A stretch of 64,000 bases of DNA, taken from NCBI GenBank assembly GCA_037200965.1, contig JBBCGK010000001.1, positions 736,001-800,000 on the forward strand. The letters are read 5' to 3'. A model generated the notes under the pieces. That model did not search any database, was not told the origin of the DNA, and saw only the letters and a program-made list of their open reading frames with translations. Below, in pieces: positions 19,581-63,124 of this stretch (the first letter of the stretch is position 1; each line of letters opens with the position of its first letter). A program made the position numbers and the translations under genes. The DNA comes from a bacterium (GTDB taxonomy: Bacteria > Patescibacteriota > Minisyncoccia > Phycocordibacterales > Phycocordibacteraceae).

Positions 19581-19872
19581 TCAAAAAGACAGCGGGGTAG
19601 AGGAGTGGTACCTCGGGAGGCTTGAATTATTCGGGCGTGCGCGCGAGCAATTGCGCGTAAGATCATCTGCCAAATTCGGTGAAACCCTCCTGCGCGAAAG
19701 CACAGACGGCAACGCCGAGCCAAGCCCTAAGAGCAATCGAAGGGAAGGTGTAGAGACTAGACGGTAGACATCCCGCAGGGGATGAAGGCATAGTCCAGAC
19801 CACAAATCATTCGTGCGAGAGCGGCGAAAGCCGTAGTGGTAGGCATAACCTCCAGACTCGGGTTCGAATCCC
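19581..19872 (+). tRNA. split tRNA(CAU) (Met or Ile2) gene. Exon 1 is 19581-19612, exon 2 is 19834-19872. The CCA end is not encoded
   Basis: Exon 1 supplies the acceptor strand AGCGGGG, U8, D-arm GAGG/AGUGGUA/CCUC, anticodon-stem strand GGAGG and loop CU. Exon 2 supplies CAUAA, anticodon-stem strand CCUCC, T-arm UCGGG-UUCGAAU-CCCGA and acceptor strand CCCCGCA + A73. Joining the exons gives a canonical cloverleaf with anticodon loop CU-CAU-AA. Confidence 0.75.
19613..19833 (+). ncRNA. group I self-splicing intron (IC3-like, Azoarcus tRNA-Ile intron-like) in the anticodon loop
   Basis: The intron follows a U and ends with G. It contains CAAAUUCGGUGAAACC, GGCAACGCCGAGCCAAGC and AAGGUGUAGAGACUAGACGG, recalled from memory as near-identical to the Azoarcus group I ribozyme. 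A P2-like hairpin GCGCGAGCAAUUGCGCG is present. Confidence 0.7.
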
Positions 19873-19946
19873 GACCCCGCAACAAGCTTGTGATAGTGGA
19901 ACCCAGACCGGTGCGCCTGCAAAAGCAGTTCAGTATCGGTCCGGAT

Positions 19947-20640: not shown

Positions 20641-21482
20641 GGCATTCAGACTCAGTTGGCACAGCTCCCATACCATGGAAGCTATGTACACTCTCAAACA
20701 GATACCGAGCGAAGCGCAGATTCGGAAGTTCTTGCGCCGTACGCTCTTCGGCAAGAACGTGTTCTGTCCTTCGTGCCGGTCACGAAGGATCGAAAAGCAA
20801 CAGGAGCGGTATCGGTGCCGCACGTGCCGCATCCGCTTCTCCCTCACCTCGCACACCTGGCTCTCGAATCTGAAGCTCCCCCTCGAGCAGTGGTGGGTGC
20901 TGCTCTGGTGCTGGACCATACAAGAGCCGGTACGCCAAGCCGTCACGCTCTCTGGCCTTCCGGAACGCACGGTCAGGCGTTGGTATGCCACCTTCAGGCT
21001 CCATTTGCCCCAGGAAACCCATGTGCTCGAACGTATCGTCCAAATGGACGAAGCGTACTTCAAAAACGCCGCGCTCGTCATGGCCAAGCAGAAAGGTACG
21101 AGAAAGCTCGCCTTCGAGGTATTCCACGGCAGGTACCCAACCAAGACTGATGCCGTCTCATTCCTGTTCGAGCATGTGGCGCCGGGAAGCGAGCTCTGGA
21201 CCGATGGCGGGTCGATATACAAGAACATCAGCCAACGCTGGCCGGTGTCGCACCAGCGAGATATTCACTCCAAATTCGAGTTCGAGCACACCTCTGAGAT
21301 CGAGGGAATGTTCGGGGTATACCGCACCTTCGTGCGCAGGATGTATCATCATCACTGGAGCGAGAACTTGGAGGAATACGTGAGGGAATTCTGCTTCAGA
21401 TTTTCCTCGCCGGAAATCTTCAATTCGCCCCGTATTTACTTAACGAAATCACTCACGCTTGTGCCAACTTGTTCTTAATACC
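20641..21482 (+). mobile_element. IS1595-family insertion sequence (~842 bp) with ~25-bp imperfect terminal inverted repeats and 10-bp flanking direct repeat CCGATGGTGG
   Basis: The left end GGCATTCAGACTCAGTTGGCACAG matches the reverse complement of the right end (GGTATTAAGAACAAGTTGGCACAAG). Direct repeats lie at 20631-20640 and 21483-21492. Confidence 0.7.
20675..21478 (+). CDS. IS1595 family transposase (ISXO2-like DDE, N-terminal zinc ribbon)
   Basis: N-terminal CPSC…CRTC zinc ribbon. Length and layout match the ISXO2-like transposase domain. Confidence 0.75.
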   Translation: MEAMYTLKQIPSEAQIRKFLRRTLFGKNVFCPSCRSRRIEKQQERYRCRTCRIRFSLTSHTWLSNLKLPLEQWWVLLWCWTIQEPVRQAVTLSGLPERTVRRWYATFRLHLPQETHVLERIVQMDEAYFKNAALVMAKQKGTRKLAFEVFHGRYPTKTDAVSFLFEHVAPGSELWTDGGSIYKNISQRWPVSHQRDIHSKFEFEHTSEIEGMFGVYRTFVRRMYHHHWSENLEEYVREFCFRFSSPEIFNSPRIYLTKSLTLVPTCS

Positions 21483-34000: not shown

Positions 34001-35105
34001 CTCAATAGGTCCCGCCGGTCAGGTACAGAACGGCCCGGCTATCGTTATCGCCACCTCGACGACCGCATTTAACGGCATTACGGTGGGCGACACGATAACC
34101 GGTTCGGGGAACACGCTTACGTGGAAGCCCAGCTGGAGCGGTTCGCTCAGCGTCCCTGGCGGCGGCACGGGGGCGACTTCGTTCGGGCAGGGCTGGATAT
34201 TCTCAAGCGGCGGCACGGGTGCCCTTGCTGCCTCGACAAGCCCGACCGTGAACTATCTTATCGCCACCTCGACGACCGCCGCTTCGATCTTCAATTACCG
34301 CGTCGGCATCGGTACGAACGCCCCCGCAACCGCGCTTGACGTGAACGGCGATATCACGATCGAGACCTTGACCTGCAACACATCGCTCGTCGGACTGGGC
34401 ACCGACGCGAACGGCAAGATCTATTGCAAGAGCGTCGTAGGTTCCGATGAGCGGCTTAAGTCGAATATCGAAAGTCTCGGCGACGAAAATGGCCTTGCTC
34501 TCATAGACTCGCTGCGCCCTGTCTCCTATGACTGGAAGGACCCGAACGTGTATGGCGGCATGTCCGGCCTCCAGTACGGGTTCATCGCGCAGCAGGCGCT
34601 TTCTGCCGCGCCGACTCTCGTCGGCACGACGTCGCCGACAGAACTGACGCCCGACGTCACGTACACGTTCAACTATTTCGGCCTCATCGCGCCCCTCGTG
34701 AAAGCGACACAGCAGCTTGACGCGCGGTTCGGCGCGATTGCTTCAACGAGCGCGGATGCGTCTCCGACGTCTTTTGCTCAGGCATTCTTTGGCCGTCTTC
34801 GGGAATGGTTCGCCGACGCGGCAAACGGAATCGAGGACTTCTATGCGAATCGTGTCCATACTTCGCAACTATGCTTAGCAGTCTCCGGCGGGGAAGAGGA
34901 ATGCTTTACGGGCGACGAGCTGAAAGCCCTTAAGGAGAAAGCCGGACAGCATGACAAGGTTCCGCCGCCCGGCATCGGGCCTGTCATCATCGAGGATGTT
35001 CCGCCGCCGGACACCACTGCCTCATCGTCCGAGCCGGAATCAGAAGCCGCTGCGGCTATGCCAGTGCCTCCCGATCCCGCTACTGACTTACCCGCGCCCG
35101 AGTAA
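28026..35105 (+). CDS. giant (2359 aa) secreted surface protein, Gly/Thr/Ser-rich repeat region, C-terminal intramolecular-chaperone (peptidase S74-like) domain and Pro-rich tail
   Basis: Signal-peptide-like N-terminus, then an AAWDGQPYAPGATLDPECGPSDSNCK module. Long near-identical internal repeats. C-terminal VVGSDERLKSNIESL…LRPVSYDWK…GFIAQQ resembles the autoproteolytic tail-fibre chaperone domain, followed by a PPPG/PPPD tail. Confidence 0.8.
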   Translation: MLFLLVRTLIRPHTSLRAFPSLAGKGFLFLFVLWSCSISALPAYAAWDGQPYAPGATLDPECGPSDSNCKTLASADATTLEGRSGSYYLANSFSTTSAAYFLSDNPGLSFATTSSDYWLAHRSTSDLPEGSRLYYTDARADARILATTTLANIISLPGLSLSASQLTGFGIPFYNFFHATTTDALAEGSLHRYYSDVLARGALGVSAGALAYDSGTGILSVAGGYTIPLSASTTEWGEAYDNRITSASAPLTIANREISLGIVDAGHGGTGLASYNPGALLYADADGNLTTLSPGSSGTVLKIAGGVPTWGTDLSSGGGGGAVAWATTSDSLAIYPMDSTNVVIVGASATSSATSVFEVHGRSYFTTNVGIGTTSPLSALSVAGSGFFTGNLTSANITATGTLSVSGAGTSTFAGPFLAGNLAVAGLPAGLIKAGAGGYLRGAVAGTDYFDPAAFGSTFYSFFHATTTDALAEGSVHKYWSDTLFDNRLSATTSLPGLSSIGSYTGLIGANNGSMYQIATSTNFVTSIAAAYPLSVSGPAGAVTISTALATTTFQHSYGSAQIGQIILATSSAATSNGITVGQTITNSGGVFTFAPAVSVSNIPNAALQNSAVTVNGTLIPLGGSGTVAAASSTLLGDNNTFSGGNTFLSTITGSVSGNAGTVTNGVYTTTFGGLFDNRLSATTSLPGLTAVSSGLTGVLKAAAGSLSAAAPGIDFENPLSFLYPLARTANSVSLAFGTTTSNTWGGTQTFTNNPILGTLTGLFYGNNGSLAATATSSVTSGTGIGFSGTPGALVGGTPLTITNTGVTSNIAGTGISVSGATGAVTISAANVPNSALENSTIGLASGDSSLTVSGSPASLGGSLSASLNTAHPNTFTALQQFSANASTTGISSSYASSTKAFLGSLSIGNLTGILRAAGGAVSASLVSLASDVTGVLGVINGGTGWDSIQSGSIPYGNGAGALATTSPGTNGQTLALVAGVPAWIATTTAGTGLTYSGGSFNVNTAQNVAKLSNLTGNGFVKTINGDGTLSVDTNTYLASIGPAGQSQSGPAVAIASSTDSATGLISGVVITGSANTLTWKAVLSGVLSAANGGTGSTTLSGILKGNGTGVLMTAVPGTDYQAAGNYLTALTGDISASGPGSAAATLATVNADTGSFGGSTAIPTFVVNGKGLVTSAGTAAVIAPAGTLTGTVLASNILASSLTSVGTLGTLSVSGQASLAGASSTAFSSSYASSTSAFFGNLSVGSLSGILRATAGAVSAGAVNLASEISGMLGVANGGTGAGSFAAGSLIYGNGTGPLQSAATSSVSNGAGISVSGAAAVVGSGGLTITNTGITSVTPQFGAAISNGGLTVASSTAGTDFSITGSGSTITFNLPTASAANRGLLSSADWSAFSAKQGALTFAYPLQNSANTVSLAFGTTTANTWGPVQTFTNVPVLGTLSGIIYGNNGSLAATATSTLGVALADTTGSLPVDRGGTGSTTLGGILKGNGTSGIATAVPGIDYQPAGSYLTGNQTVTLSGDVSGSGATSITTAIGAGKVTNAMLLGAIAAAKLIGTDITTVGTIVSGVWQGSVIGSAYGGAGAVSGILKANGSGNVSAASAGTDYVAPNSSPTFAGLTLLSALPVASGGTGWSAIQSGSIPYGNGSGALATTSSGAAGSVLALVAGVPAWVATTTFSTGLTYTAGSVTVNTAQSIAKLSNLTSNGFVKTINGDGTLSVDTNTYLASIGPAGQSQSGPAITIATSTAGTDISVTASGNTITFNLPTASAANRGLLSSSDWTTFNGKVSTGAFTSSGLTLSTGKLLGRSLDGTGAAEEITVGSGLSLSGGTLSASGSGISALGPSGQTQSGATVTIATSTSLANGVTSALVVVGSSNTLMFTPSVSGVLTVPGGGTGAGTLTGLVSGNGTNAFTATANGANGQVLAMSAGAPTWVATTTFSTGLTYTAGTVTVNTVQSVTKLSNLATNGFVKTINADGTLSIDTNTYLTSALTSIGPAGQVQNGPAIVIATSTTAFNGITVGDTITGSGNTLTWKPSWSGSLSVPGGGTGATSFGQGWIFSSGGTGALAASTSPTVNYLIATSTTAASIFNYRVGIGTNAPATALDVNGDITIETLTCNTSLVGLGTDANGKIYCKSVVGSDERLKSNIESLGDENGLALIDSLRPVSYDWKDPNVYGGMSGLQYGFIAQQALSAAPTLVGTTSPTELTPDVTYTFNYFGLIAPLVKATQQLDARFGAIASTSADASPTSFAQAFFGRLREWFADAANGIEDFYANRVHTSQLCLAVSGGEEECFTGDELKALKEKAGQHDKVPPPGIGPVIIEDVPPPDTTASSSEPESEAAAAMPVPPDPATDLPAPE

Positions 35106-39693: not shown

Positions 39694-40187
39694 AGCGGAT
39701 CCTGAAGCTGTCGGCGGGCCTGGGTGCGGTCCTGCTGTGCGCGGGTATCGTTCCAGCATCCGTACATGCGGCGAGCGTGGCGCTTTCCATCCCCGACCGG
39801 TACGCGCAAGTGGATCCCGACGACCGTTTTTACTACCAGCTTAACGTCCTGTATCCGGAAAACGTCCAGCGGAGGGACCTCACCGTCACTTACCGCGTCG
39901 AGGAGGGGCAGGCGACGATCGTCAGCGGCCAGTACCTGCGGGCAGTCGAGACGCAGGCATCCTTCTCCGATTACATCGTCATTCCGACCGACGCCCGGGA
40001 AGGCCTCCATACGATAGAGATCGCGGTCACCGACGGCGACAAGCCGCTCGCGCAGGTGAGCGGAAGCTTCCAGGTCAATCCGCAGGAAGACTGGGTCATG
40101 ATCTACTTCTCGATACTTCTTGCCGCCGTGCTGCTGGTCGGCGTCGGCCTGTTCGTCGAGATCCTTATCGTGTCCCGCCGCGCATGA
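39690..40187 (+). CDS. secreted hypothetical protein with C-terminal TM anchor
   Basis: ATGA coupling and signal peptide MKRILKLSAGLGAVLLCAGIVPASVHA. Confidence 0.5.
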   Translation: MKRILKLSAGLGAVLLCAGIVPASVHAASVALSIPDRYAQVDPDDRFYYQLNVLYPENVQRRDLTVTYRVEEGQATIVSGQYLRAVETQASFSDYIVIPTDAREGLHTIEIAVTDGDKPLAQVSGSFQVNPQEDWVMIYFSILLAAVLLVGVGLFVEILIVSRRA

Positions 40188-40291
40188 CTTGTCCACACCG
40201 CGAATGCTTGAACGGGACAGGTGCTGCTAGACTCAAGAGTGTTCCGGTGTTGCGCACCGCATCTGTCCCGGGGACGATTAATTCTCGTCTC

Positions 40292-43282
40292 ATGCGCACC
40301 ATCTTCACCTCTCCTTTGCTAGCGTTCGCGGGACGCTTCACCGCGGTTTTCTTTTTCGTATTTGCAGCAAACGGTATCGTCGGTTTTCCCGCCGCGCATG
40401 CGGCATGGGACGGTAATCCGTACGAGCCCGAGGAAACACTCGATCCGGAATGCTCGCCGAATCAGGGGCAGTGCCGTATCACGCAGCCCGTCAGCGCCGG
40501 AGAGAGCGTACCGGCAGGCTCGCTTCTCTATACCGACGGTACGGATTCATGGACGACGCTTCCCATCGGCAGCGACGGCAAGGTGCTCAAGATAAGCGGC
40601 GGTTCGGTCGTCTGGGGAGACGATAACGGCGGCATCTCGTACAGCGCATCCGAACAGGGGCTGCACCTTGATGCGGGCACGCACGTGCTCTCTATCACGC
40701 TTGACGGCTCGACGCTCTCCGCGTCCGGAAGCGGACTCCGGCTTGCGGCCGCCTATCCCGGTCAGGCATCCATTACGACGCTCGGTACCATTACGACCGG
40801 CACGTGGCATGGTTCCGCAGTAGCTCCGGCCTATGGCGGTACGGGCGCGTCGTCAGCTCCCGCAAACGGCCAGCTTCTCATCGGCAACGGATCGACGTAT
40901 ACGGTCGCGAACGCGAGCGGCTCGGGCGGCATACAAATCACGAACGGTTCGGGATCGCTTGGCATCGGCCTTTCCATAAGCGGATTGTCGGCAGTCTCAA
41001 GCGCCGCGAACGGCGATTATCTCGCGCTCTACGATGACAGCGCGGGGGCGAACAGGAAGATCAGCATCAGCGACCTGTTCGCGAACGTTATCGGCTCTCT
41101 TAATTTCCAAGGCACGTGGGATGCGGATGCGAACAGCCCGTCCCTTTCCGACGGCATGTGCACGGCAAGCGAAAACGGATACTTCTATATCGTCGGCACG
41201 TCCGGAGCGACGACTCTGGGCGGCGTGTCCTCATGGGACGTGGGCGACTGGCTTATCTGCGACGGCACGGGCTGGGGCAAGGTCGCGGATACGAGCGCCA
41301 TCGCGAGTGTGTTCGGGCGCACCGGCGCGGTCACTGCTCAGAGCGGGGACTATACCGGCGACCAGATCATCAATGTCGCGGCGGGCACGATCGCCTCGAC
41401 GAACGTGCAGGGCGCCATTAACGAGCTCGCAAGCGAGAAAGAAGCGGCGATAGCGTCGGGCCTTACGACCCAGTACTGGCGCGGCGACAAGACGTGGCAG
41501 ACCTTGAATACGCTCGCGGTGGCCGAGAATCCCGCCCACCTCTATTACACCGACGCCCGCGCGAGAAACGCGTTTTCTTCGGGCAGTGCATCGCTTTCGT
41601 ACGATTCCTCGACCGGCGTCATCGCCGTTACGGGCGGATACAGCATTCCGGAATCGGGGACCATCGAAGGGGATACGCTCGTCTGGGACGGATCGAACTG
41701 GGTTCCGACCGAGGGCGCGATGTCGTTCTCTTTGTCCACCGGCCTTCTCTCGATCGATGGCACCGCCTCGTCTACCGACCTTTATATCGCGGATGATGCC
41801 ATCATAGCCTCCGCCGATATCGGATCGCTTTCCGCCGATTCGCTCTCGCTTTCCGCCGCCCTTGGCGCAGGGTCAGGCGGTACCGGCATCACGAGTCCTG
41901 TCTCGGCCGGAATTCTTATCGGTACGCAGGGAGGCGGAGCGTGGCAGCAGGTCGCGACCTCGACGCTCCGCATCGCGCTTGCCGATACGACCGGAACCCT
42001 TTCGGTCGTCAAGGGCGGTCTTGGTCTCACTGCCGCGCCTTCGTTCGGGAATCTCCTCATGGGTAACGGTTCGGGCGGCTATACTTCGGTCGCGACTTCT
42101 TCGCTCGGCCTTACGTTCTCTTCGATCGCGGGGACGCTCGGGGTTTCCGCGGGAGGAACCGGCGTAGTTTCCGCGCCTTCATTCGGGGAGCTCCTGCTTG
42201 GAAACGGCTCAGGAGGATATGCGCTCGCCGCCACCTCGACTCTCGGTCTCAATCTCTCCTCGCTTACCGGAACCCTTGGCGTCGCCGCAGGCGGTACCGG
42301 AGCGGCGAGTCTTGGCCAAGGATGGCTCTATTCGACCGGCGGCGGCATCGCGCTCTCCGCGTCCACGTCGCCGACCGTGAACTACCTTCTCGCCACCTCG
42401 ACGACGCAAGCATCCGCGATTGCCTACCGTCTCGGCGTCGGGAGTACGACGCCGCTTGCGACCCTTGCGGTTAAGGGTGCGGGAACCGGCGCGGGCGTCA
42501 CGCTTCAGACGACCGACAGCGCCGACATCGCGGGCCTTACGGTTCTCGACAAGGGATTCGTCGGCATAGGCACGACATCTCCGGTGGCTGCGCTTGCGGT
42601 GAGCGCGGCGGCCGGCGTCGCGCCGTTCGCGGTGGGTTCGTCGACGGGGGGAATCAAGCTCACCGTCGCCGCGAACGGCTTCGTCGGCGTCGGCACCTCA
42701 AGCCCTACGTATCCGCTCGACGTGCGGGGAGATGTCGGCGGAACGGTCGCGCGTTTCCAGACTACGACAAATTCGCTCTTCTGCCTCCTCTCCTCGATTA
42801 CCGGGCTTTTGAGTTGCGCATCGGACGAGCGGCTCAAGAAGGACATTACGCCGCTTGACGCGTCGACGCTCGACCAGGTCCTCGCGCTCAAGCCGGTTTC
42901 GTACCACTGGAAGACCGATGATTCTTCCGCCGGACTCAAGTATGGATTCATCGCGCAGGATGTCGAGAAGATATTTCCCGAACTCGTTTCCGCCGATCCC
43001 ACCACCGGCTACAAGTCCCTTTCCACCGGCGGCATGATGCCATACGTCGTGAAAGCTCTTCAAGAGCAGCAAGTCGAAATCGAGGATCTCAAGGCGCAGA
43101 TAGCGGTGCTTGCCGCTCATCTTCCGCATGTGTCCGGAGATGACGAAACTCCCGCACCGGTTCCTCCTTCCGGGCCCGAAGAGGAGGAAGGAAGCGTGAC
43201 CCCTCCTGTTCCTGAGGAGGAAGTTCCGGCTCCCGTACCGCCGACCGTGAATACTGACGATGCTCCGGTCGCAACTCCGTAG
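40292..43282 (+). CDS. giant (~1000 aa) secreted surface protein, paralogous architecture to 28026-35105 (shared N-terminal module, C-terminal S74-like chaperone domain, Pro-rich tail)
   Basis: Signal peptide MRTIFTSPLLAFA…AAHA|AWDGNPYEPEETLDPECSPNQGQC. C-terminal CASDERLKKDITPL…LKPVSYHWK…GFIAQD, a coiled coil, then PAPVPP repeats. An alternative ATGA-coupled start lies at 40184. Confidence 0.8.
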   Translation: MRTIFTSPLLAFAGRFTAVFFFVFAANGIVGFPAAHAAWDGNPYEPEETLDPECSPNQGQCRITQPVSAGESVPAGSLLYTDGTDSWTTLPIGSDGKVLKISGGSVVWGDDNGGISYSASEQGLHLDAGTHVLSITLDGSTLSASGSGLRLAAAYPGQASITTLGTITTGTWHGSAVAPAYGGTGASSAPANGQLLIGNGSTYTVANASGSGGIQITNGSGSLGIGLSISGLSAVSSAANGDYLALYDDSAGANRKISISDLFANVIGSLNFQGTWDADANSPSLSDGMCTASENGYFYIVGTSGATTLGGVSSWDVGDWLICDGTGWGKVADTSAIASVFGRTGAVTAQSGDYTGDQIINVAAGTIASTNVQGAINELASEKEAAIASGLTTQYWRGDKTWQTLNTLAVAENPAHLYYTDARARNAFSSGSASLSYDSSTGVIAVTGGYSIPESGTIEGDTLVWDGSNWVPTEGAMSFSLSTGLLSIDGTASSTDLYIADDAIIASADIGSLSADSLSLSAALGAGSGGTGITSPVSAGILIGTQGGGAWQQVATSTLRIALADTTGTLSVVKGGLGLTAAPSFGNLLMGNGSGGYTSVATSSLGLTFSSIAGTLGVSAGGTGVVSAPSFGELLLGNGSGGYALAATSTLGLNLSSLTGTLGVAAGGTGAASLGQGWLYSTGGGIALSASTSPTVNYLLATSTTQASAIAYRLGVGSTTPLATLAVKGAGTGAGVTLQTTDSADIAGLTVLDKGFVGIGTTSPVAALAVSAAAGVAPFAVGSSTGGIKLTVAANGFVGVGTSSPTYPLDVRGDVGGTVARFQTTTNSLFCLLSSITGLLSCASDERLKKDITPLDASTLDQVLALKPVSYHWKTDDSSAGLKYGFIAQDVEKIFPELVSADPTTGYKSLSTGGMMPYVVKALQEQQVEIEDLKAQIAVLAAHLPHVSGDDETPAPVPPSGPEEEEGSVTPPVPEEEVPAPVPPTVNTDDAPVATP

Positions 43283-55806: not shown

Positions 55807-56487
55807 ATGATTTACTTCGACAAGGTCACCAAGATCTATAACGGCAGCGAACCCGCGCTTGAGGACATAACTCTCTCCATCGCCCCCAAGGAATTCGTTT
55901 CCATCGTCGGGCACTCGGGCGCGGGGAAGACAACGCTCCTCAAGATGCTCCTTGCGGAAGAGAAGCCCACCGACGGCTCGATATTCTTCGAATCGATCGA
56001 CGTGCATGCTCTTCCTTCCGCGGCGCTTCACCACTACCGCCGCAAGATCGGCGTCGTATTCCAGGATTTCCGGCTCATCCCGACGAAGACCGCGTACGAG
56101 AACATCGCCTTCGCGATGGAGGCCGCGGGACGCCCCGACGACGAGATCGCCTCCGATGTACCGTATATCCTCGAGCTCGTCGATCTCGCGAATAAAGCGA
56201 ACCATTTCCCTTCGCAGCTCTCGGGCGGCGAGAAGCAGCGCGTGGCGATCGGAAGGGCGATCGTAAACCAGCCAGAGCTTATCGTTGCCGACGAGCCGAC
56301 GGGGAATCTCGATCCGATCAACACCTATGAGATCGTCGAGATACTCAAGAAGATCAACGAGCTTGGCACCACGGTCGTGATCACGACGCACAACAAGGGT
56401 GTCGTCGACGCCGTCGGAAAGCGGGTCGTGACTATGGACCGCGGGAAAGTGGTGCGCGATGATCCGCAAGGCGCCTACGTCTTATAA
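55807..56487 (+). CDS. ftsE: cell-division ABC ATPase FtsE
   Basis: Walker [10 protein letters not shown], signature LSGGEKQRV, Walker [13 protein letters not shown]. Confidence 0.9.
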
Positions 56488-56497
56488 CGATATTTCT

Positions 56498-57424
56498 ATG
56501 AACTGGACCAACATCCGCCGCATACTTTCCCAGGGAGCAACTACGTTCGTACGTAGCGGCTCGGTGTCCTTTGCGACCGTGCTCATCATGACGGTGACGC
56601 TCGGCATCATCGCGTTCCTCATTTTCCTCTCGGCGGTACTCAACTTCACGCTCGACTCGATCAAGGACAAGGTGGACGTGAACGTGTATTTCGTCACGAC
56701 CGCGGCCACAAGTGATATCAACGCGCTTAAGGATAAGCTCGAGAAGCTTCCCGAGGTGCGGGAAGTGACCTATACCTCCCGCGAGCAGGCGCTCGCCGAT
56801 TTCACCGCGCGCCACGCAAGCGATCAGCTCACGCTCCAGGCGCTTGATGAGCTTGGCGAGAATCCGCTCGGTGCGAACCTTGCCGTGAAGGCCAAAGATC
56901 CTTCGCAGTACGAGGGGATCGTCAGCTTCCTTGGCGGCCAGCCGGCGCTTTCCTCCGACGGCGCGTCGATCATCGACCGCATCAACTACCAGCAGAATAA
57001 GACCGTGATCGACCGCCTCACGGGCGCCATCGACGCGACGAGGAAGGTCGGCGTCGTGATCGTCCTTCTCTTCGCTCTTGCTTCGATCACGATCGCCTTC
57101 GCTACCATCCGCCTCGCCATCTACACCGCGCGAGACGAGATCGGCGTGATGCGGCTCGTCGGGGCTTCGAACTCCTATATCCGCTATCCGTTTGTCGTCG
57201 CGGGCATGATCGCGGGGCTTCTTGCCGCGCTTATCGTGCTCTTCATCCTCTATCCGGCTACCTGGTACGCCGCGAGCGCAACGACGACATGGCTTGGGGG
57301 CTTCAGCCTCTTCTCGTACTACGCGGGCAACTTCGCCGCGATCTTCTTCGCGCTTGTCGGTTCGGGAGTGATCCTCGGAGGCCTCGCGAGCTTCCTCGCG
57401 GTGCGCCGGTATCTCAAGATCTAG
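56498..57424 (+). CDS. ftsX: cell-division permease-like protein FtsX
   Basis: It follows ftsE. N-terminal TM, an extracellular domain, and three C-terminal TM helices. An alternative overlapping start lies at 56459. Confidence 0.8.
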   Translation: MNWTNIRRILSQGATTFVRSGSVSFATVLIMTVTLGIIAFLIFLSAVLNFTLDSIKDKVDVNVYFVTTAATSDINALKDKLEKLPEVREVTYTSREQALADFTARHASDQLTLQALDELGENPLGANLAVKAKDPSQYEGIVSFLGGQPALSSDGASIIDRINYQQNKTVIDRLTGAIDATRKVGVVIVLLFALASITIAFATIRLAIYTARDEIGVMRLVGASNSYIRYPFVVAGMIAGLLAALIVLFILYPATWYAASATTTWLGGFSLFSYYAGNFAAIFFALVGSGVILGGLASFLAVRRYLKI

Positions 57425-57425
57425 T

Positions 57426-59081
57426 ATGGCAAAGCAGCCGCACAAATACATCTTCGTCGTCGGCGGGGTGATGAGCGGCGTGGGGAAAGGCGTCGCGACC
57501 GCGTCGATCGGGAAGATACTTTCCTCGCGCGGCTTCAAGGTGAACCTCGTCAAGATCGATCCGTACCTCAATGTCGATGCGGGCACGATGAATCCGACCG
57601 AGCACGGCGAAGTGTTCGTGCTCGACTCGGGGCTCGAGACCGACCAGGACATGGGCAACTACGAGCGCTTCCTCGGCCGCGGGCTCGGGCCCGAGGACTA
57701 TATGACTTCCGGGATGGTATACAAGGCGGTCATCGAGCGCGAGCGGGCGCTCGGGTACAAAGGCAAGTTCGTCGAAGCCATCCCGCACGTGCGCGACGAG
57801 ATCATCGAGCGGCTCGAGCGGGCAAGCGAGGCTGCAGGTTCCGATGTATCGGTCATCGAGATCGGCGGCACCGTGGGGGACTTCCAGAACGCCCTTTTCA
57901 TCGAGGCCGGACGCGTCATGCACATGCGGGATCCCCGGGACGTGCTTTTTATCATGGTCTCCTATCTTCCGGTTCCGGGCACCATCGGGGAAATGAAGAC
58001 CAAACCGACCCAAAGCGCGATACGGGATTTGAACCGCTATGGCGTGCAGCCCGAGATCATCATCGCCCGCTCGACGCACGCGCTTGACGCGAAGCGCAAG
58101 GAAAAGCTCGCCGTCTGGTGCAACGTCCTTCCCGAGCGCGTGATCTCCGCGCCGGACGTCAAAAGCGTGTATGACGTGCCGACGAATTTCGAGCGCGACC
58201 GGCTCTCCGATATCCTCCTTAAGATACTCGACCTCAAGACCCGGAAGAGCGCGGACCTCAGGGAATGGGAGCAGTTCGCGAAGCGCGCGCATAACGGCAA
58301 GTCAGCGGTCAAGATCGCGATTGTCGGAAAGTATTTCGATACGGGCGACTTCGTCCTCTCCGACGCCTATCTGTCCGTCATCGAGGCCATCAAGTATTCG
58401 GCGTACGCGCTTGGCGTCCGGCCCGAGCTCCATTGGCTTTCCTCGCACGAGTTCGAGAAGGACCCGAAGGCGGTCGCGAAACTGAAGTCGTACGACGGCA
58501 TCATCGTTCCCGGGGGCTTCGGCGAAAGCGGGATAGAGGGGAAGATACACGTGATCCGCTACGCGCGGGAGAAGAAGATCCCGTATTTCGGCCTCTGCTA
58601 CGGCATGCAGCTCATGACCGTCGAGTTCGCGCGAAACGTCGCGGGCCTCAAGGGCGCGAACACGACCGAGATCAACAAGGATACGCCGCATCCGGTGATC
58701 GATATCCTTCCGGAGCAGAAGGAAAAGCTTGAAAAGAAAGACTATGGCGGCTCCATGCGCCTTGGCGCCTATCCCTGCTACCTGAAGCCCGCAACCATCG
58801 CCCGCGCGGCATACGGGAAGGAAATGGTCGCCGAGCGGCACCGCCACCGCTACGAGGTCAATCCCGACTACGTCTATCGATTGCAGAAGGCGGGCCTCGT
58901 CTTTTCCGGCGTCTCTTCCTTCGCGCACGGGGGCGACCTCATGGAAATCGCGGAGCTTCCGAAATCGAAGCACCCGTTCATGCTCGGCACGCAGTTCCAT
59001 CCCGAATTCAAGGCGCGTCCGCTCTCGCCGCACCCGCTCTTCACCGCGTTCATCAAGGCCGCAAAGGGAAAAAAGAAATAG
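57426..59081 (+). CDS. pyrG: CTP synthase
   Basis: N-terminal YIFVVGGVMSGVGKG synthetase domain, a C-terminal class I glutamine amidotransferase (GLCYGMQ…H…E), and a length of 551 aa. Confidence 0.95.
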   Translation: MAKQPHKYIFVVGGVMSGVGKGVATASIGKILSSRGFKVNLVKIDPYLNVDAGTMNPTEHGEVFVLDSGLETDQDMGNYERFLGRGLGPEDYMTSGMVYKAVIERERALGYKGKFVEAIPHVRDEIIERLERASEAAGSDVSVIEIGGTVGDFQNALFIEAGRVMHMRDPRDVLFIMVSYLPVPGTIGEMKTKPTQSAIRDLNRYGVQPEIIIARSTHALDAKRKEKLAVWCNVLPERVISAPDVKSVYDVPTNFERDRLSDILLKILDLKTRKSADLREWEQFAKRAHNGKSAVKIAIVGKYFDTGDFVLSDAYLSVIEAIKYSAYALGVRPELHWLSSHEFEKDPKAVAKLKSYDGIIVPGGFGESGIEGKIHVIRYAREKKIPYFGLCYGMQLMTVEFARNVAGLKGANTTEINKDTPHPVIDILPEQKEKLEKKDYGGSMRLGAYPCYLKPATIARAAYGKEMVAERHRHRYEVNPDYVYRLQKAGLVFSGVSSFAHGGDLMEIAELPKSKHPFMLGTQFHPEFKARPLSPHPLFTAFIKAAKGKKK

Positions 59082-59092
59082 GCTTGCGTGTG

Positions 59093-59139
59093 TAAAGCGA
59101 AGGGGCGGCACCGGGATGAAACCCGGCGCCGCCCGTTTC
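59093..59139. repeat. GC-rich hairpin repeat copy 1 (bidirectional terminator between pyrG and NDK-like gene)
   Basis: UAAAGCGAAGGGGCGGCACCGGG-augaaa-CCCGGCGCCGCCCG. A near-identical copy lies at 60246-60293. Confidence 0.6.
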
Positions 59140-59575
59140 AGAAGAATATCCTGATGTCGCGTATTGCCTCGTTTGCGTCACGCGGCCGATGCAGCGCGTT
59201 TCGCCAGTATTTCCGCCTGCCGCCGATGATATCGGCGTTCGGAATGCCGAACTGCCGGCGCAGCGTCGATTCATGGCATTTGCCCGGATTGGTTTCTTTT
59301 CCCGCGAGCGCGAAGAAACGACGTATCGCGTCTTTGCCCTCGAGGAGGAGGACCGGAGTCGCATGGCCGAGATAGTGGTCGACAGTCGCTTCCACGATCT
59401 CCTCGGGGCATCGCGGGTACATGCTCTGGATGGTGTTTAGCGCGTTGGCTCGGAAATCCCAGCGATATTCCCGCTGACCCACCACCATAAGTCCGATATT
59501 GGCGATACGGCGCCGTATTTCGGGCGCATACCGCACCGCCTCAGGTTTCAGCAGTGCAACAGTGTGTTCACGCAT
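59138..59575 (-). CDS. nucleoside diphosphate kinase family protein (divergent, catalytic His retained)
   Basis: It aligns to NDK: ALLKPEAV (≈FSIIKPNAV), VLLLEGKDAIRRF…TNP…TLRRQFG, and NALHRPRDANEAIRDIRIFF (≈[20 protein letters not shown]). There is a GGGAG RBS. Confidence 0.65.
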   Translation of the reverse strand: MREHTVALLKPEAVRYAPEIRRRIANIGLMVVGQREYRWDFRANALNTIQSMYPRCPEEIVEATVDHYLGHATPVLLLEGKDAIRRFFALAGKETNPGKCHESTLRRQFGIPNADIIGGRRKYWRNALHRPRDANEAIRDIRIFF

Positions 59576-59663
59576 GGTGTTCTCCCGGAACTGTCTCGGA
59601 TTGCATCGTAACTCGTATGTAAGTTCGTGTCAAGCTCTGCTTCGTGCTGTATACTCGTGCGTA

Positions 59664-60248
59664 ATGGAGGAGATAGAAGCTAAGTTTCTTGGGATAGATA
59701 CCGAGACCATCGAAAAGAGACTTCAGGAGTTAGGGGCGATATTCGAAAAGGAACGCCTCATGTACGCGATATCGTTCGATTTTCCGGGATTTCCGCTCGA
59801 CGCGAACTCCGCGTGGGTCCGGCTCCGCAACGAAGGGGATGTAATCAAAATCGCGTTCAAACAACGGCTTGGGGTAAAGGCCGACGGCGGGAACGACGAC
59901 GGCATGAGAGAAATAGAAACCGAAGCAGGGCACTTTGAGGACATGCGTCAGATATTGCTTGCGATCGGAATGGTGGAGAAGTTCGTTATGGAAAAGAAGC
60001 GCCGTTCCTGGGTTAAGGATGGTATCCGTTACGATATCGATTTCTGGCCGCGGCTCGATCCGTATCTTGAGATCGAGACTGACAGCTGGGACAGGCTCGA
60101 GGAAGCCGCCCGCGAACTGGGCCTCAAGCCCGAAGAGAAGAAGATTTTCTCCGCAAGCCAGATTTATAAAATGGCGGGAATCAACGACACCGACTATGTT
60201 CAGATGACTTTTGCAGAGTGGGTGCCGAGAGATCCGTCCGCTTCGTAA
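59664..60248 (+). CDS. CYTH-domain protein (triphosphate tunnel metalloenzyme; class IV adenylate cyclase / triphosphatase family)
   Basis: N-terminal EIEAKF (ExExK) motif and a later …E.E.E…W…D…E pattern. The start is taken at the internal Met because the upstream part of the ORF overlaps the convergent NDK-like gene. Confidence 0.6.
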   Translation: MEEIEAKFLGIDTETIEKRLQELGAIFEKERLMYAISFDFPGFPLDANSAWVRLRNEGDVIKIAFKQRLGVKADGGNDDGMREIETEAGHFEDMRQILLAIGMVEKFVMEKKRRSWVKDGIRYDIDFWPRLDPYLEIETDSWDRLEEAARELGLKPEEKKIFSASQIYKMAGINDTDYVQMTFAEWVPRDPSAS

Positions 60249-60293
60249 AGCGAAAGGGCGGCACCGGGATGAACCCAGTGCCGCCCCGTAACA
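60246..60293. repeat. GC-rich hairpin repeat copy 2 (bidirectional terminator)
   Basis: GUAAAGCGAAAGGGCGGCACCGGG-augaa-CCCAGUGCCGCCCCG. Confidence 0.6.
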
Positions 60294-60296
60294 TCT

Positions 60297-60740
60297 CTAC
60301 GCCCAACATTCGAAGAGCGACGCATCCCAGCGGGCTTCGTCCTGATTTGCCGGACGAAGAACGCCGTTCTTCCAGTATCGCAGGCCATCGCCGAGGTCGT
60401 CAGGGTGATGCACGCCGTACAGATAGCGGAGGGTACGTGTTCCGCATTCGCCAGGGCTCATCTGCGCGCCCGCAAGTTCGCGGAATCTTTCGATCGCATC
60501 GCGCCCGGTGATCAAGAGCATGGAGACGCGATAACCAAGAAAGCTTTGAACCGTCGCCTCGATGACATCGCCCGGGACGCGATACAGCAGATGACCCACG
60601 TATTCTTCGGTCTTCGCGCGGTTGTCGCAGTAAAAACTGGTTTCCCGCGAGATGGTCAGGCCGCTTACCGCGATGTTGCCGCGGATGGCAGGGAGGCGGC
60701 CGATAGCTTCCGGGCGGATAATGGCCACGGTGGATTGCAT
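60297..60740 (-). CDS. NDK-family paralogue with catalytic His replaced (NGVLRP), likely pseudo-enzyme
   Basis: Paralogous to 59138-59575 (AIIRPEAI…MLLITGRDAIERFRELAG…TLRYLYG…NGVLRPANQDEARWDASLF). There is a strong AAGGAG RBS. Confidence 0.6.
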   Translation of the reverse strand: MQSTVAIIRPEAIGRLPAIRGNIAVSGLTISRETSFYCDNRAKTEEYVGHLLYRVPGDVIEATVQSFLGYRVSMLLITGRDAIERFRELAGAQMSPGECGTRTLRYLYGVHHPDDLGDGLRYWKNGVLRPANQDEARWDASLFECWA

Positions 60741-60872
60741 GGGATACTCCTTACGCAGAGGAACTGTTGCGGTCCGTACCATACACCCCGCAGGAGTGGA
60801 TTGTCGAGCGGACGAAACCGATATCGTTTATGAAAAAAAGGACGGGCCCGAAAGCCCGCCCTCCATCTGCCT

Positions 60873-61508
60873 TTAGACCCTAGCAATCCGCGCCCAGAAC
60901 GTTTCACCGTCCTCCTCCGATCCCAGCTGCAAAGCAAACCCGCAAGCCGCAAGATGCGGAGTGAGGGTCTCCAGCGTCCAGTCGGTAACGAGCATCCTAT
61001 GCTCCGAAGGAATAAGGGGATTGTCGGCGCTCGTCAGTATCCGGTCACCCGTTCCTGACGAACCGATGATAATACCGGATGCCTCTGGCTTGAGGATCCG
61101 GCGGATGCTCGTAAGCGCGGCTTCTATGTTATGGCGCCGGATATGAGCCAACGAGAATGCCGCGACGAATCCGTCGCACCGTTCCGTGACGACCGATGCC
61201 AGATTAAGCACGTTTCCGATCCGGAAGTCGTTTTTCGGATAGCGGAAACGGGCGATAGCGACGAGTTCGGGGCAGGGATCCACCCCTATCGGGTGCCGTA
61301 TTCCGAGTTCGCCGAATGCTTCCATGGCGCCTCCGAACCCGCATCCGATATCCGCAACGACCGGATGCTCGGGTAGGGCATACCGCCAGTGCCATAAAAA
61401 CGAAGTGGCGGTCATGCGGTCGTCGAAGCTTGCGTAGGCAGCGGCCGTGGCGCCGTATGCGGCGAGTGTCGCCCGTTCCATTTCGTCCTGCGGTATGTGC
61501 GCGTTCAA
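60873..61508 (-). CDS. class I SAM-dependent methyltransferase
   Basis: Motif I VVADIGCGFGG. Confidence 0.7.
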   Translation of the reverse strand: MNAHIPQDEMERATLAAYGATAAAYASFDDRMTATSFLWHWRYALPEHPVVADIGCGFGGAMEAFGELGIRHPIGVDPCPELVAIARFRYPKNDFRIGNVLNLASVVTERCDGFVAAFSLAHIRRHNIEAALTSIRRILKPEASGIIIGSSGTGDRILTSADNPLIPSEHRMLVTDWTLETLTPHLAACGFALQLGSEEDGETFWARIARV

Positions 61509-61587: not shown

Positions 61588-62364
61588 CTATTGCCTCAGC
61601 CCAAGTCCTTTCTTTATGAAATACCAGTTGACGGCAAGGAGGATGCCCGCAAGCGCGACCAGAACTCCGGTCGAAGCGAAGATGGAGACGTCGGCAAAGC
61701 CGAGGAAGCCGTACCGGAATCCGTTCACGATATAGAAGATCGGATTGAAAAGCGTCGCTGTCTGCCACCAGTCCGGGAGCGTCCCGATCGAATAGAAGAC
61801 GCCGCCGAGATAGACGAGCGGGGTGAGGACGAAGGTCGGTACGATGGTGATGCCGTCGAAGTTCGTCGCATAGATGCCGTTTATGAGTCCGCCAAGGGCG
61901 AATACGAGGCTTGCGAGCACGAGGAAGAGAAGAACGATGAGCGGATGCGCGATCGAGGGGAGCGCGAAGAAAAGCGAAACCAGAAGCACGAGAATGCCGA
62001 CGAGGACGCCGCGGACGATGCCGCTCGCCACGTACCCGGCGATAAGCGTCACGGGAGAAGTGGGTGAGACAAGCACTTCGTCGATGTTGCGCGAGAAGAA
62101 CTTGGACGTGAAGAAGGTGGTCGCCACGTCGGTATACGCGTTCGTGATCACGGCGAGCATCACGAGTCCCGGGACGACGAAGAGGATATACGGCACGCCC
62201 TCGATGGTGCCGATCCGTGAGCCGAGGATCGCCCCGAAGACCGCGAAATAAAGCACGGACGTGACGAGCGAGGGAAGAAGCGTCTGCGACCAAATGCGGA
62301 TGATGCGCATCACGCCTTTGCGGAGGATCGTATAGAAGGAAACGAGCTGCTGGTCGAAGGGCAT
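61588..62364 (-). CDS. ABC-2 family transporter permease
   Basis: Six TM helices and the ABC-2 permease signature region. Confidence 0.8.
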   Translation of the reverse strand: MPFDQQLVSFYTILRKGVMRIIRIWSQTLLPSLVTSVLYFAVFGAILGSRIGTIEGVPYILFVVPGLVMLAVITNAYTDVATTFFTSKFFSRNIDEVLVSPTSPVTLIAGYVASGIVRGVLVGILVLLVSLFFALPSIAHPLIVLLFLVLASLVFALGGLINGIYATNFDGITIVPTFVLTPLVYLGGVFYSIGTLPDWWQTATLFNPIFYIVNGFRYGFLGFADVSIFASTGVLVALAGILLAVNWYFIKKGLGLRQ

Positions 62365-62365
62365 A

Positions 62366-63124
62366 TCAGTTCTGGGTGAGCTTCACGAAAATATCCTCGA
62401 GCTTGCCGCCGCCGTAGCCGCTCGCGGGCGCGCTGTCGTCGTGAAGCGCGAGGATTTCCTGCATCGTGCCCTTGGCGACGATCTCGCCCTTGTTGATGAT
62501 CGCCACGTGCTTCGCGAGCCGCTCCGCTTCCTCGAGATAATGGGTCGTGAGGAGGATGGTGATGCCTGCTTTGGTAAGGGTCGTGAGATAGTCCCACATG
62601 CTTCTTCGAAGTTCCACGTCGACGCCTGCCGTCGGCTCGTCGAGGATGAGGAATTTCGGCTCATGGATGAGCGCGCGGGCGATCATGAGCCTTCGCTTCA
62701 TGCCGCCCGAGAGCTTGAAGCCGATCTGGCCGAGCTTATCGGAGAGTCCCATGTCGGCGAGGAGCTTCTCGGCGCGCGGTATCGCGATCTTTCTCGGGAT
62801 ACCGTAGTACCCCGCCTGGTTTACGAGAATATCCAAAGGCTTCTCGAAGGGATTGAAGTTGATCTCCTGCCCGCAGACTCCGATCATGGTACGTGCCTTT
62901 CCTGAATCCGTATCGATATCGTGCCCGAAGACCTTCACGCCGCCGCCTGTCTTGTTCACGAGTCCCGTGACGATGCCGATGATGGTCGTCTTCCCGGCAC
63001 CGTTGGGGCCAAGGAGCGCAAAGAAGTCGCCTGCGGGGACGGTGAGGGAGACGCCCTTGAGGGCTTCGGTGCCGGTATCGTATTTCTTCTTGAGGTCGGT
63101 AAGGACGAGCGCGGGTTCCTGCAT
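62366..63124 (-). CDS. ABC transporter ATP-binding protein
   Basis: Walker A GPNGAGKTT, signature LSGGMKRRL, Walker B ILDEPTAGVD. Confidence 0.9.
   Translation of the reverse strand: MQEPALVLTDLKKKYDTGTEALKGVSLTVPAGDFFALLGPNGAGKTTIIGIVTGLVNKTGGGVKVFGHDIDTDSGKARTMIGVCGQEINFNPFEKPLDILVNQAGYYGIPRKIAIPRAEKLLADMGLSDKLGQIGFKLSGGMKRRLMIARALIHEPKFLILDEPTAGVDVELRRSMWDYLTTLTKAGITILLTTHYLEEAERLAKHVAIINKGEIVAKGTMQEILALHDDSAPASGYGGGKLEDIFVKLTQN

Follow-up and report, generated by a model that had tools for sequence, protein, structure and literature searches.

A divergent NDK-fold protein and a CYTH protein encoded beside pyrG in a Patescibacteriota genome, with a second NDK-like copy lacking the nucleophilic histidine

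This study concerns a 64,000-nt stretch of the forward strand of assembly GCA_037200965.1 (contig JBBCGK010000001.1, positions 736,001-800,000; Patescibacteriota, Phycocordibacteraceae), hereafter the window, and within it three genes beside pyrG: two that encode nucleoside-diphosphate kinase (NDK)-like proteins, A and B, and one between them that encodes a CYTH protein resembling the triphosphate tunnel metalloenzymes (TTMs). We consider it somewhat more probable than its negation that A and the CYTH protein represent a conserved pair of the candidate phyla radiation (CPR), in which A is a divergent NDK-fold phosphotransferase acting through phosphohistidine and the CYTH protein a triphosphate-tunnel hydrolase, while B has lost the nucleophile. 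The component parts (NDK fold, CYTH domain, intrinsic terminator) are of known kinds. Below, compared genome or metagenome loci carry L-numbers, and proteins of the NDK-like clade carry P-numbers.

Genes A (59138-59575, minus strand, 145 aa) and B (60297-60740, minus strand, 147 aa) encode proteins with 37% amino acid identity (BLASTP, E = 4e-35). The first-pass annotation of this DNA, made from the letters alone, had put the identity at about 40%; the paralogy stands, at the lower measured value. Against Pfam NDK, A scored 44.2 bits, above the cut-off of 27, and B 24.8 bits, just below it (E = 2e-5). The NCBIfam Ndk equivalog model NF001908 gave 36.6 bits for A and 20.2 for B, with a cut-off of 155; NCBI annotation names A a nucleoside-diphosphate kinase. 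AlphaFold2 models built with an 80-sequence family alignment reached predicted local distance difference test (pLDDT) values of 98.2 for A and 97.4 for B, and in Foldseek searches against the PDB all top-50 matches of both proteins were NDKs, with template modelling (TM) scores of 0.7-0.8 and E from 1e-8 to 1e-10. This confirms the NDK fold proposed earlier for both proteins; a failure to align to that fold was looked for with Foldseek and did not occur.

Sequence comparison places A and B in a separate NDK-like clade and not among canonical Ndk proteins, so the earlier description as NDK-family genes was correct for the fold and incorrect if taken to mean ordinary Ndk with its usual nucleotide-site residues. 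A word-indexed homologue search with A returned only A itself, and an exhaustive profile search yielded 406 cluster representatives at E<1e-3. With an 80-member family profile, clade members scored at least 155 bits and canonical NDKs at most 79 bits, and a long stem set the clade apart from canonical NDKs in a neighbour-joining tree. The named genome loci of the clade all belong to Patescibacteria, with Zambryskibacteria, Nomurabacteria, Saccharibacteria and the Parcubacteria group represented. No match to the clade came from the collections of phage, plasmid and viral sequences searched, and an origin of that kind was rejected.

Residues were compared between about 137 clade members and 55 canonical NDKs in M. 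tuberculosis numbering. Lys10, Tyr50, Arg86, Thr92, Arg104 and Asn114 are the phosphate- and ribose-binding residues of the enzyme, and the roles of the base-stacking Phe58, the nucleophilic His117 (His118 in human) and the Kpn-loop Pro were taken from the same source (PMC7554756). The six binding residues are all conserved in 54-55 of the 55 canonical sequences. Lys10, Tyr50, Arg104, Asn114, His117 and the Kpn-loop Pro are conserved in both groups, the His in 55/55 canonical and 130/137 clade sequences, and Thr92 is retained in just 63 of the 137 clade members. The remaining positions separate the groups. Where canonical NDKs have Phe58 (55/55), 118 of 137 clade members have Leu, Ile or Val (A has Ile and B Val); the phosphate-binding Arg86 (54/55) is replaced in the clade by hydrophobic residues. 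Gly118 (53/55) becomes Arg or Cys, Ser119 (54/55) becomes Pro, Ser or Ala, and Asp12 (55/55) is mostly Glu; A and B both have Arg-Pro in place of Gly-Ser. Neither protein thus has the base-stacking Phe58 or the His-Gly-Ser motif.

The clade also carries an invariant extra Cys three residues past the Kpn Pro (Cys100 in A) and a 7-residue insertion ending Tyr-[Tyr/Phe/Trp]-x-Asn, modelled as a beta-hairpin that replaces the canonical helical Kpn loop. These features suggest that the clade probably keeps the phosphotransfer chemistry and rebuilds the acceptor site and, probably, the oligomer contacts.

Protein A retains Lys10, Tyr53, Arg106, Asn126 and His129, the gamma-phosphate-transfer residues of Ndk, together with all near-invariant clade residues. 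Its nucleophilic His129 stands in YW-R-N-A-L-H-R-P (N126-A-L-H129-R-P), and B reads N-G-V-L128-R-P in the same column of every alignment. The initial observation that A keeps NALH and that Leu replaces His in the NGVLRP of B is therefore consistent across all alignments, which also rule out a His that is merely shifted. No His lies within 15 residues of the nucleophile column in B, and its nearest ones, H111 and H112, occupy a column where His is common clade-wide.

The Leu128 codon of B is CTT (plus strand 60357-60359), and the orthologues in L004 and L006, metagenomic contigs of close relatives (sister genomes), have CAT. A single A>T change (CAT>CTT) thus removed the nucleophile. The CTT is not a sequencing or assembly error, as the sequence is identical in three independent assemblies, which represent one strain (0-3 differences). 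At the six phosphate- and ribose-binding positions, in the order given above, A reads K, Y, F, T, R, N and B reads R, Y, R, M, R, N, its Tyr being displaced by one column; in contrast to its orthologues, B has Met and lacks Thr at both candidate positions for Thr92. B nevertheless keeps its fold and nearly all clade-invariant positions (G28, G80, G92, P97, the Cys, R106, N126, R130-P131). Because the Arg at the Lys10 column and the shifted Tyr also occur in its His-bearing orthologue P0004, the predicted catalytic defect would lie mainly in the one substitution. On this evidence B is predicted to be unable to form phospho-His. Members without the His recur in the clade (6-7 of the ~137 sequences), among them P0010, which is encoded next to pyrG and has Tyr in place of His.

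The CYTH gene (59664-60248, plus strand) encodes a protein of 194 aa that starts MEEIEAKF (ExExK) and scores 56.6 bits against Pfam CYTH (cut-off 23.2). Each of the residues E3, E5, R53, R55, K66, E83, E85, E110, R113, D124, D126, E136 and E138 is kept in 119 or more of 120 relatives. The protein thus joins an N-terminal ExExK to the tunnel Arg/Lys and Glu/Asp residues, and the first assignment of the middle gene as CYTH holds with a full set of acidic and basic tunnel positions. Its nearest PDB sequence is the Saci_0718 TTM. The 227 relatives found at E<1e-10 lie in Parcubacteria-like genomes, and we refer to this CPR subfamily as type 1. A second subfamily, type 2, is 28% identical to it and keeps the tunnel residues as well (n = 4), except for Lys at the R53 column in one sequence; one Zambryskibacteria genome carries both types (L009, L037). 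Because the ExExK/R glutamates and the tunnel Arg, Lys, Glu and Asp residues are kept, activity is predicted for both types. Against TIGR00318, the model for class IV adenylate cyclase (CyaB), the window protein scored 32.9 bits, below the cut-off of 57.95, so the adenylate cyclase names that databases attach to type 1 proteins are unsupported.

NDK-like and CYTH genes are neighbours in 8-9 lineages, in four gene arrangements and with CYTH proteins of two subfamilies, which backs the functional link first proposed from the window alone. Among non-redundant loci, the distance from an NDK-like gene to a CYTH gene is no more than a few hundred bases in the window, L032/33, L009 (=L014/15/22), L011, L012, L013 (=L028/29), L017, L021 and L025. 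The two genes are divergent in the window and L032 and convergent in L011; the NDK-like gene precedes CYTH in L009, L017 and L012, and follows it after a 5-nt gap in L013 and with a 17-nt overlap in L025. Most often the CYTH neighbour is of type 2. These loci were found in the genome-collection scan only via the NAIHRPK[NT] subset, so that the sampling of contexts is biased to that sub-motif; the same scan with the four closest sequences found nothing. No paper linking CYTH or TTM proteins with Ndk, and none describing Ndk in Patescibacteria, turned up in the literature searched. The pairing, including that with other phosphohydrolases, appears undescribed, and an NDK-like clade specific to Patescibacteria with its own signature, its hypervariability and a naturally His-less copy beside an intact one were likewise not found there.

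Further partners of the clade are also phosphohydrolases: HD (as a fusion), HD_4, NUDIX and Ham1, the last two including a NUDIX neighbour and a Ham1 neighbour. In P0125 and P0139 (343-345 aa) the NDK-like domain is fused to an HD phosphohydrolase. P0009 (L010 1079-2329), beside adk and secY, is a fusion of a TauD/TfdA-like dioxygenase with an NDK-like domain. An operon in L005 (1604-6095), whose genes overlap or abut, encodes a RelA_SpoT-like protein (362 aa), a TIR+NUDIX protein (630 aa), HD_4 (178 aa), the NDK-like P0067 (145 aa) and a 177-aa protein. Its RelA_SpoT-like and TIR+NUDIX proteins match the PADLOC candidate systems PDC-S33 and PDC-S07, and the operon may be an alarmone- or NAD-based conflict system that recruited the NDK-like clade. 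In L018 the NDK-like gene has a TIR-HAD neighbour.

Several other contexts were observed. In L011 (6968-8702, Parcubacteria), a tandem pair of NDK-like paralogues precedes a CYTH gene in convergent orientation, an independent second case of a layout with two NDK-like genes and CYTH. Both paralogues have their His, one in a His-Arg-Pro and the other in a His-Cys-Pro motif, and a stretch of N breaks the second. In L012 (6995-7780, Saccharibacteria), an NDK-like gene is reduced to its last ~25 residues (…YFLNAIHRPKTPDEV…), in frame upstream of an intact type 2 CYTH, an apparent decay of the kinase-like partner. A conserved gene of ~400 aa with a CxxxCxxC motif (CKWQCAYC, radical-SAM-like) follows just downstream of the NDK-like/CYTH genes in three related lineages (L009 8097-9314, split into two open reading frames; L016 4521-4829, without CYTH; L017 5135-6358), and had no Pfam match at E up to 0.01. 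The context in L027 (1323-4429) is unlike all others, the NDK-like gene overlapping by 11 nt the end of two radical S-adenosylmethionine (SAM) genes (SPASM; B12-binding).

According to the promoter scan, the 88-bp region between A and CYTH (59576-59663) serves both genes. The promoter of A is TTGACA-17-TACGAT (59633..59605, minus strand) and that of CYTH is GTGTCA-17-TATACT (59627..59655, plus strand), and their -35 hexamers overlap. The promoter and 5' untranslated region (UTR) of B occupy 60741-60807 on the minus strand, with TCGACA-18-TATGGT (60807..60778) and the Shine-Dalgarno sequence AAGGAG. The three genes are thus predicted to be three separate transcription units, those of A and CYTH starting back-to-back. 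The limits first given for the module, 59093 and 60740, were borne out, and the promoter and 5'UTR of B reach ~60807. The start of B at 60740 is backed by the Shine-Dalgarno sequence, gene calls and the conserved start ATGCAA of its orthologues; this evidence makes a longer reading frame reaching 60782 an unlikely start. The ATG of CYTH lies 8 nt past the -10 hexamer TATACT. In the window (59650-59666) and in L032 (~3650-3670), a TATACT -10-like hexamer stands 6-8 nt before the CYTH start without a Shine-Dalgarno sequence, so the CYTH mRNA is probably leaderless.

The 5'UTRs of A and B share the motif ACAGTTCC (59587-59594 and 60760-60767), which has no other site in the 64-kb window. It lies exactly 10 nt past the -10 hexamer in both genes and is missing at the equivalent place in L004 and L006. 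A search of the 5'UTR against Rfam gave no match even at E up to 1.

Each NDK-like gene is followed by a GC-rich hairpin on the minus strand. Copy 1 (59092-59136, stem 59103-59134) lies between A and the convergent pyrG (57426-59081, plus strand; CTP synthase, Pfam CTP_synth_N 328 bits and GATase 130 bits), the conserved anchor of the locus. Copy 2 (60245-60289, stem 60255-60287) lies between B and the convergent CYTH gene, whose stop codon TAA (60246-60248) falls within it. The double occurrence of the hairpin had been recorded earlier at 59093-59139 and 60246-60293, and is retained here with these exact limits; each copy does adjoin a minus-strand NDK-fold gene, just downstream of it.

The copies are 45-nt direct repeats with a start-to-start spacing of 1153 nt. 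They are 82% identical without gaps and ~87% identical with one 1-nt gap, a likeness that spans some 45-60 nt. The 13-mer GGGCGGCACCGGG and the 17-mer flank GTAAAGCGAANGGGCGG are each confined to the two hairpin sites within the window. Folding of both copies gave 13-14-bp stems with -31 to -36.5 kcal/mol and z = -4.2 to -5.9. In the terminator scan both were minus-strand calls (13-14 pairs, including 11-12 GC pairs, a tail of at least 5 T in 8 bases); the called hairpins have a loop of 5-6 nt and energies of -33.4 and -36.5 kcal/mol, with z below -5. Both therefore look like intrinsic terminators, with a GC-rich stem-loop and a U tract at the gene 3' end, although the T tract is interrupted (CTTCGCTTTAC). 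They lie 2-10 nt from the stop codons of the convergent genes, the stop of A being nearest at 3 bases from the stem.

The hairpins are predicted to be terminators shared by the convergent pairs pyrG/A and CYTH/B. Because each copy has one position that pairs as G-U in minus-strand RNA and is an A-C mismatch in plus-strand RNA, a different position in each copy, they would best fit minus-strand transcripts, as terminators of the NDK-like genes, and would also end transcription of the convergent genes on the plus strand. Neither hairpin matched an Rfam family, even at E up to 1. A dispersed element of the repetitive extragenic palindromic (REP) or miniature inverted-repeat transposable element (MITE) type is ruled out by the presence of only two copies in 64 kb.

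L004 and L006 carry a single NDK-like gene, convergent with pyrG, and no A+CYTH unit. Because B shares with the L004 and L006 genes the conserved block TATGGTAC..CCGCAAC..AGGAGTA.CCCATGC, which extends from the -10 hexamer as far as the start codon, and because B groups with these genes and not with A by pairwise identity and neighbour-joining tree (nearest P0003 and P0004), B is best read as the resident positional orthologue of the single pyrG-adjacent gene of the sister genomes. The hairpin repeats bracket exactly the 1153-bp A+CYTH unit, which has no counterpart in L004/L006. A simple duplication of terminator plus NDK gene, as read in the first-pass annotation, is therefore not the preferred account, since B pairs with the sister-genome gene and the hairpins delimit the A+CYTH unit. 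Recombination between the repeats would convert the window arrangement into that of L004/L006 by deletion. The sister genomes look like the product of such a deletion; insertion of A+CYTH, with duplication of the terminator, would be the alternative history.

The two hairpins resemble each other more than either resembles the orthologous L004 terminator, and the orthologous terminators of the sister genomes differ from them. Because the hairpins are ~87% identical while the genes have 37% amino acid identity, recent copying or gene conversion of the ends would account for them better than an old duplication of the module. The non-coding ends of A and B may thus have been copied or homogenised in this genome, or may share a regulator.

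The NDK-like genes change much faster than their surroundings. Among the window, L004 and L006, identities and nonsynonymous substitutions per site (dN) were 89-91% and 0.061-0.071 for PyrG, 86-89% and 0.074-0.102 for FtsX, and 92-93% and 0.055-0.059 for FtsE, against 40-46% and 0.48-0.61 for the NDK-like proteins (B versus its orthologues, and the orthologues versus each other). The amino acid sequence of the NDK-like gene therefore evolves 6-10 times faster than its neighbours. In L032, whose PyrG is 70% identical, pyrG, a convergent NDK-like gene and a divergent CYTH gene follow in the same order as pyrG/A/CYTH. The CYTH protein of L032 is 68% identical to that of the window, and the NDK-like proteins merely 34-36%. 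As the CYTH identity tracks that of PyrG, the CYTH gene is a conserved, vertically inherited neighbour with a hypervariable NDK-like partner. In six or more related lineages pyrG faces a convergent NDK-like gene; besides L004, L006 and L032, two further clade members are pyrG-adjacent, P0010 being one of them.

Beyond B lies a class I SAM methyltransferase gene (60873-61508, minus strand; Pfam Methyltransf_25/11) with its own terminator (60864..60837), whose membership of the module is only a candidate one. GC content at third codon positions (GC3) is 0.65-0.70 for A, CYTH, B and the methyltransferase (59138-61508; 0.675 for the last) and 0.80-0.83 for the flanking pyrG, ftsX and ABC transporter genes (55807-59081, 61588-63124). 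This four-gene block of low GC3 coincides with the synteny break relative to the sister genomes. The position directly upstream of the NDK-like promoter is taken by a tRNA gene in L004 (~6130-6215) and L006 (1-45) and by the methyltransferase and its terminator in the window; the site may be a recombination hotspot.

From residue conservation and the repeated genetic coupling of the clade to phosphohydrolases, we infer the following mechanism. Protein A would pass a terminal phosphate via phospho-His to an acceptor whose binding probably differs from that of a standard nucleoside diphosphate (NDP). The CYTH protein, metal-dependent, would hydrolyse a triphosphate-bearing product or substrate, and the two together would set the level of a phosphorylated (triphosphate-bearing) nucleotide or oligophosphate. 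B would not be autophosphorylated and could at most bind the ligand or co-assemble with A. The same kinase/hydrolase logic may apply to the NDK-like+HD fusions and to the HD_4, NUDIX and Ham1 neighbours.

Several points weigh against this proposal. The three window genes form no operon. About half of the NDK-like loci with enough flanking sequence, seven in all (L004, L005, L010, L018, L023, L026, L027), are without CYTH, and in three other lineages type 1 CYTH has no NDK-like gene beside it. The positions equivalent to F58 and R86 were assigned by sequence alignment and not from superposed coordinates, and substrates suggested for any member of the clade are guesses. The adjacency to pyrG and the intact catalytic residues of A also fit a plain housekeeping Ndk.

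A tentative possibility for the second copy, already put forward in the first-pass annotation, is that B is a maintained pseudo-enzyme, either a non-catalytic subunit co-assembling with A or a ligand sensor modulating A and/or CYTH. Despite its Leu and Arg changes, B combines a confident NDK fold with near-complete clade-invariant residues; it has its own promoter and terminator, and A and B alone in the window carry ACAGTTCC, at identical spacing. The tandem pair with CYTH in L011, the other His-less clade members and the eukaryotic group II NME proteins, which are the best PDB profile matches, point the same way. However, an interaction of A with B is conjecture, both L011 paralogues keep their His, and B is one base from an active-site-competent state. 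The Leu-bearing form is known from one strain (the three assemblies), and synonymous divergence (dS) is saturated at 1.2 or above, so that selection on B is not measurable from it and only dN ratios are usable. B may be retained as a non-catalytic partner or may be a young null allele covered by A, the two being equally possible.

The main rival to the proposed pair, which we consider rather unlikely, is that A is a housekeeping NDP kinase supplying UTP and CTP beside pyrG, B a redundant duplicate, recently inactivated and with no role of its own, and CYTH a bystander. No canonical ndk was found within the 64-kb window. The Lys, Tyr, Arg, Asn and His kept by A, its NCBI name, the position convergent with pyrG in six lineages and the location beside adk in L010 agree with a housekeeping role. 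So do the frequent location of type 1 CYTH elsewhere in the genome and the state of B, whose H>L is a single CAT>CTT change and whose Arg-for-Lys and shifted Tyr are shared with the His-bearing P0004. A housekeeping Ndk is slow-evolving, however, and dN here is 0.48-0.61 against 0.055-0.10 for pyrG, ftsX and ftsE. The Phe, Arg86 and Gly-Ser found in 53-55 of 55 canonical sequences are replaced clade-wide, His-less members recur, including the pyrG-adjacent P0010, and L012 retains an NDK-like remnant. Adjacency to CYTH recurs with two subfamilies in four arrangements, and B has an intact open reading frame, promoter, Shine-Dalgarno sequence and terminator.

The proposed pair can be taken a step further, at a probability we regard as distinctly low. 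The clade would then not be an NDP kinase but a Patescibacteria-specific phosphotransferase making a tri- or oligophosphate molecule that is removed by CYTH, HD or NUDIX proteins, with B-like regulatory subunits. The acceptor site would be remodelled, lacking both the base-stacking Phe and Arg86 and having an additional Arg next to the His as well as the invariant Cys. Products may include inorganic triphosphate, thiamine triphosphate or a nucleotide that is 3'-phosphorylated or modified in another way, and the kinase-like partner would be hypervariable because of an arms race or because its specificity is quickly retuned. If true, synthetase and hydrolase would form a signalling or conflict pair not recognised before.

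Least probable, in our view, is a conflict or defence role, in which the NDK-like genes, alone or together with CYTH, would belong to an accessory system directed at nucleotide signals. Such a role would account for their hypervariability (6-10 times the neighbour rate) and accord with the low-GC3 block, the synteny break right beyond the NDK-like gene and beside a tRNA gene in L004 and L006, the L005 operon with its two PADLOC candidate matches, and the TIR-HAD neighbour in L018, but the vertically inherited CYTH gene changes at the rate of a housekeeping gene, the place beside pyrG is kept from lineage to lineage, mobile-element genes are absent from the immediate surroundings, and the clade is not in the phage, plasmid and viral collections searched. 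A, B and CYTH had no PADLOC-DB 2.0 match at E <=0.01, and membership of the window proteins in the defence systems of that database was rejected.

Elsewhere in the window, a group I intron (RF00028, 58.8 bits, 19614-19815) lies between tRNA-like halves (5' GCGGGGTAGAGGAGTGGTA..., 3' ...TCGGGTTCGAATCCCGACCCCGCA) at 19594-19885 on the plus strand. The region looks like an intron-interrupted tRNA gene, and ARAGORN calls no tRNA there. About 0.8 kb downstream is a gene for an IS1595-family transposase (20675-21478, plus strand; DDE_Tnp_IS1595 and zinc ribbon). Two plus-strand genes encode proteins of 2359 aa (28026-35105) and 1032 aa (40184-43282), each with a C-terminal Peptidase_S74 domain (endosialidase chaperone); the first holds repeated CGGCGGCACCGG-like DNA motifs. 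Both may be giant surface or tail-fibre-like proteins.

Compared with known systems, the clade shares with canonical Ndk (NME group I, EC 2.7.4.6, PF00334) the ferredoxin-like fold, at the TM scores given above, and the conserved residues Lys10, Tyr50, Arg104, Asn114, His117 and the Kpn-loop Pro. It differs in the changed Phe58, Arg86, His-Gly-Ser and Asp12, the invariant Cys, the beta-hairpin insertion, rapid evolution, scores far under the NCBIfam cut-off and, for B, the absent His. The group II NME proteins (NME5, NME7, NME8/TXNDC3, NME9/TXNDC6) are likewise divergent members of the NDK fold. NDK7 chains are the top PDB profile matches, and the second domains of NDK7 have His-Cys, like the HCP variants of the clade. 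Several group II proteins have little or no NDP kinase activity, a precedent for non-catalytic, structural roles. They are, however, eukaryotic, axoneme-associated and multi-domain, with neither a CYTH partner nor a Cys at the clade position, and per-domain scores of merely ~45 bits; membership of the clade in this group is not claimed.

The window CYTH shares ExExK and tunnel residues with known TTMs (NeuTTM, E. coli YgiF, C. thermocellum CthTTM, Sulfolobus Saci_0718, CyaB, mammalian thiamine triphosphatase). NeuTTM and YgiF are inorganic triphosphatases, and CyaB is a class IV adenylate cyclase. Unlike these, the window protein has a clade-specific conserved insert (R68-L-G70 ... D78-G-M81) and an NDK-like gene partner, a partnership that did not turn up in the literature searched. 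A phosphotransferase is likewise genetically coupled to a phosphohydrolase in RelA/SpoT synthetase with HD hydrolase, in PPK/PPX and in plant TTM1/2, which fuse a P-loop kinase-like domain to CYTH. The phosphotransferase fold differs in all of these, and the resemblance is in logic only. The two hairpins share with bidirectional intrinsic (Rho-independent) terminators the GC-rich stem, small loop and T-rich minus-strand tail between convergent genes, and differ from typical ones in the interrupted T tract and in being ~87% identical to each other. This identity, while the orthologous terminators of the sister genomes differ, is what suggests copying or gene conversion.

Ndk is usually viewed as a uniform, slow-evolving housekeeping enzyme. 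The locus described here points to an NDK-fold clade, in reduced-genome bacteria living on scavenged nucleotides, that evolves fast, has a rebuilt substrate site and is repeatedly coupled to phosphohydrolases, CYTH proteins foremost. Should A prove to be an ordinary Ndk, there would still be a correction to two database names given on sub-threshold matches, "class IV adenylate cyclase" and "nucleoside-diphosphate kinase". The His-less copy beside an intact one offers a ready-made test of non-catalytic roles of the NDK fold in bacteria. To our knowledge, the physiological substrates of bacterial CYTH proteins are largely unknown; if A and the CYTH protein share one molecule, the pair would provide a handle on the role of small stand-alone CYTH enzymes in cells and on how Patescibacteria manage their nucleotide and oligophosphate pools.

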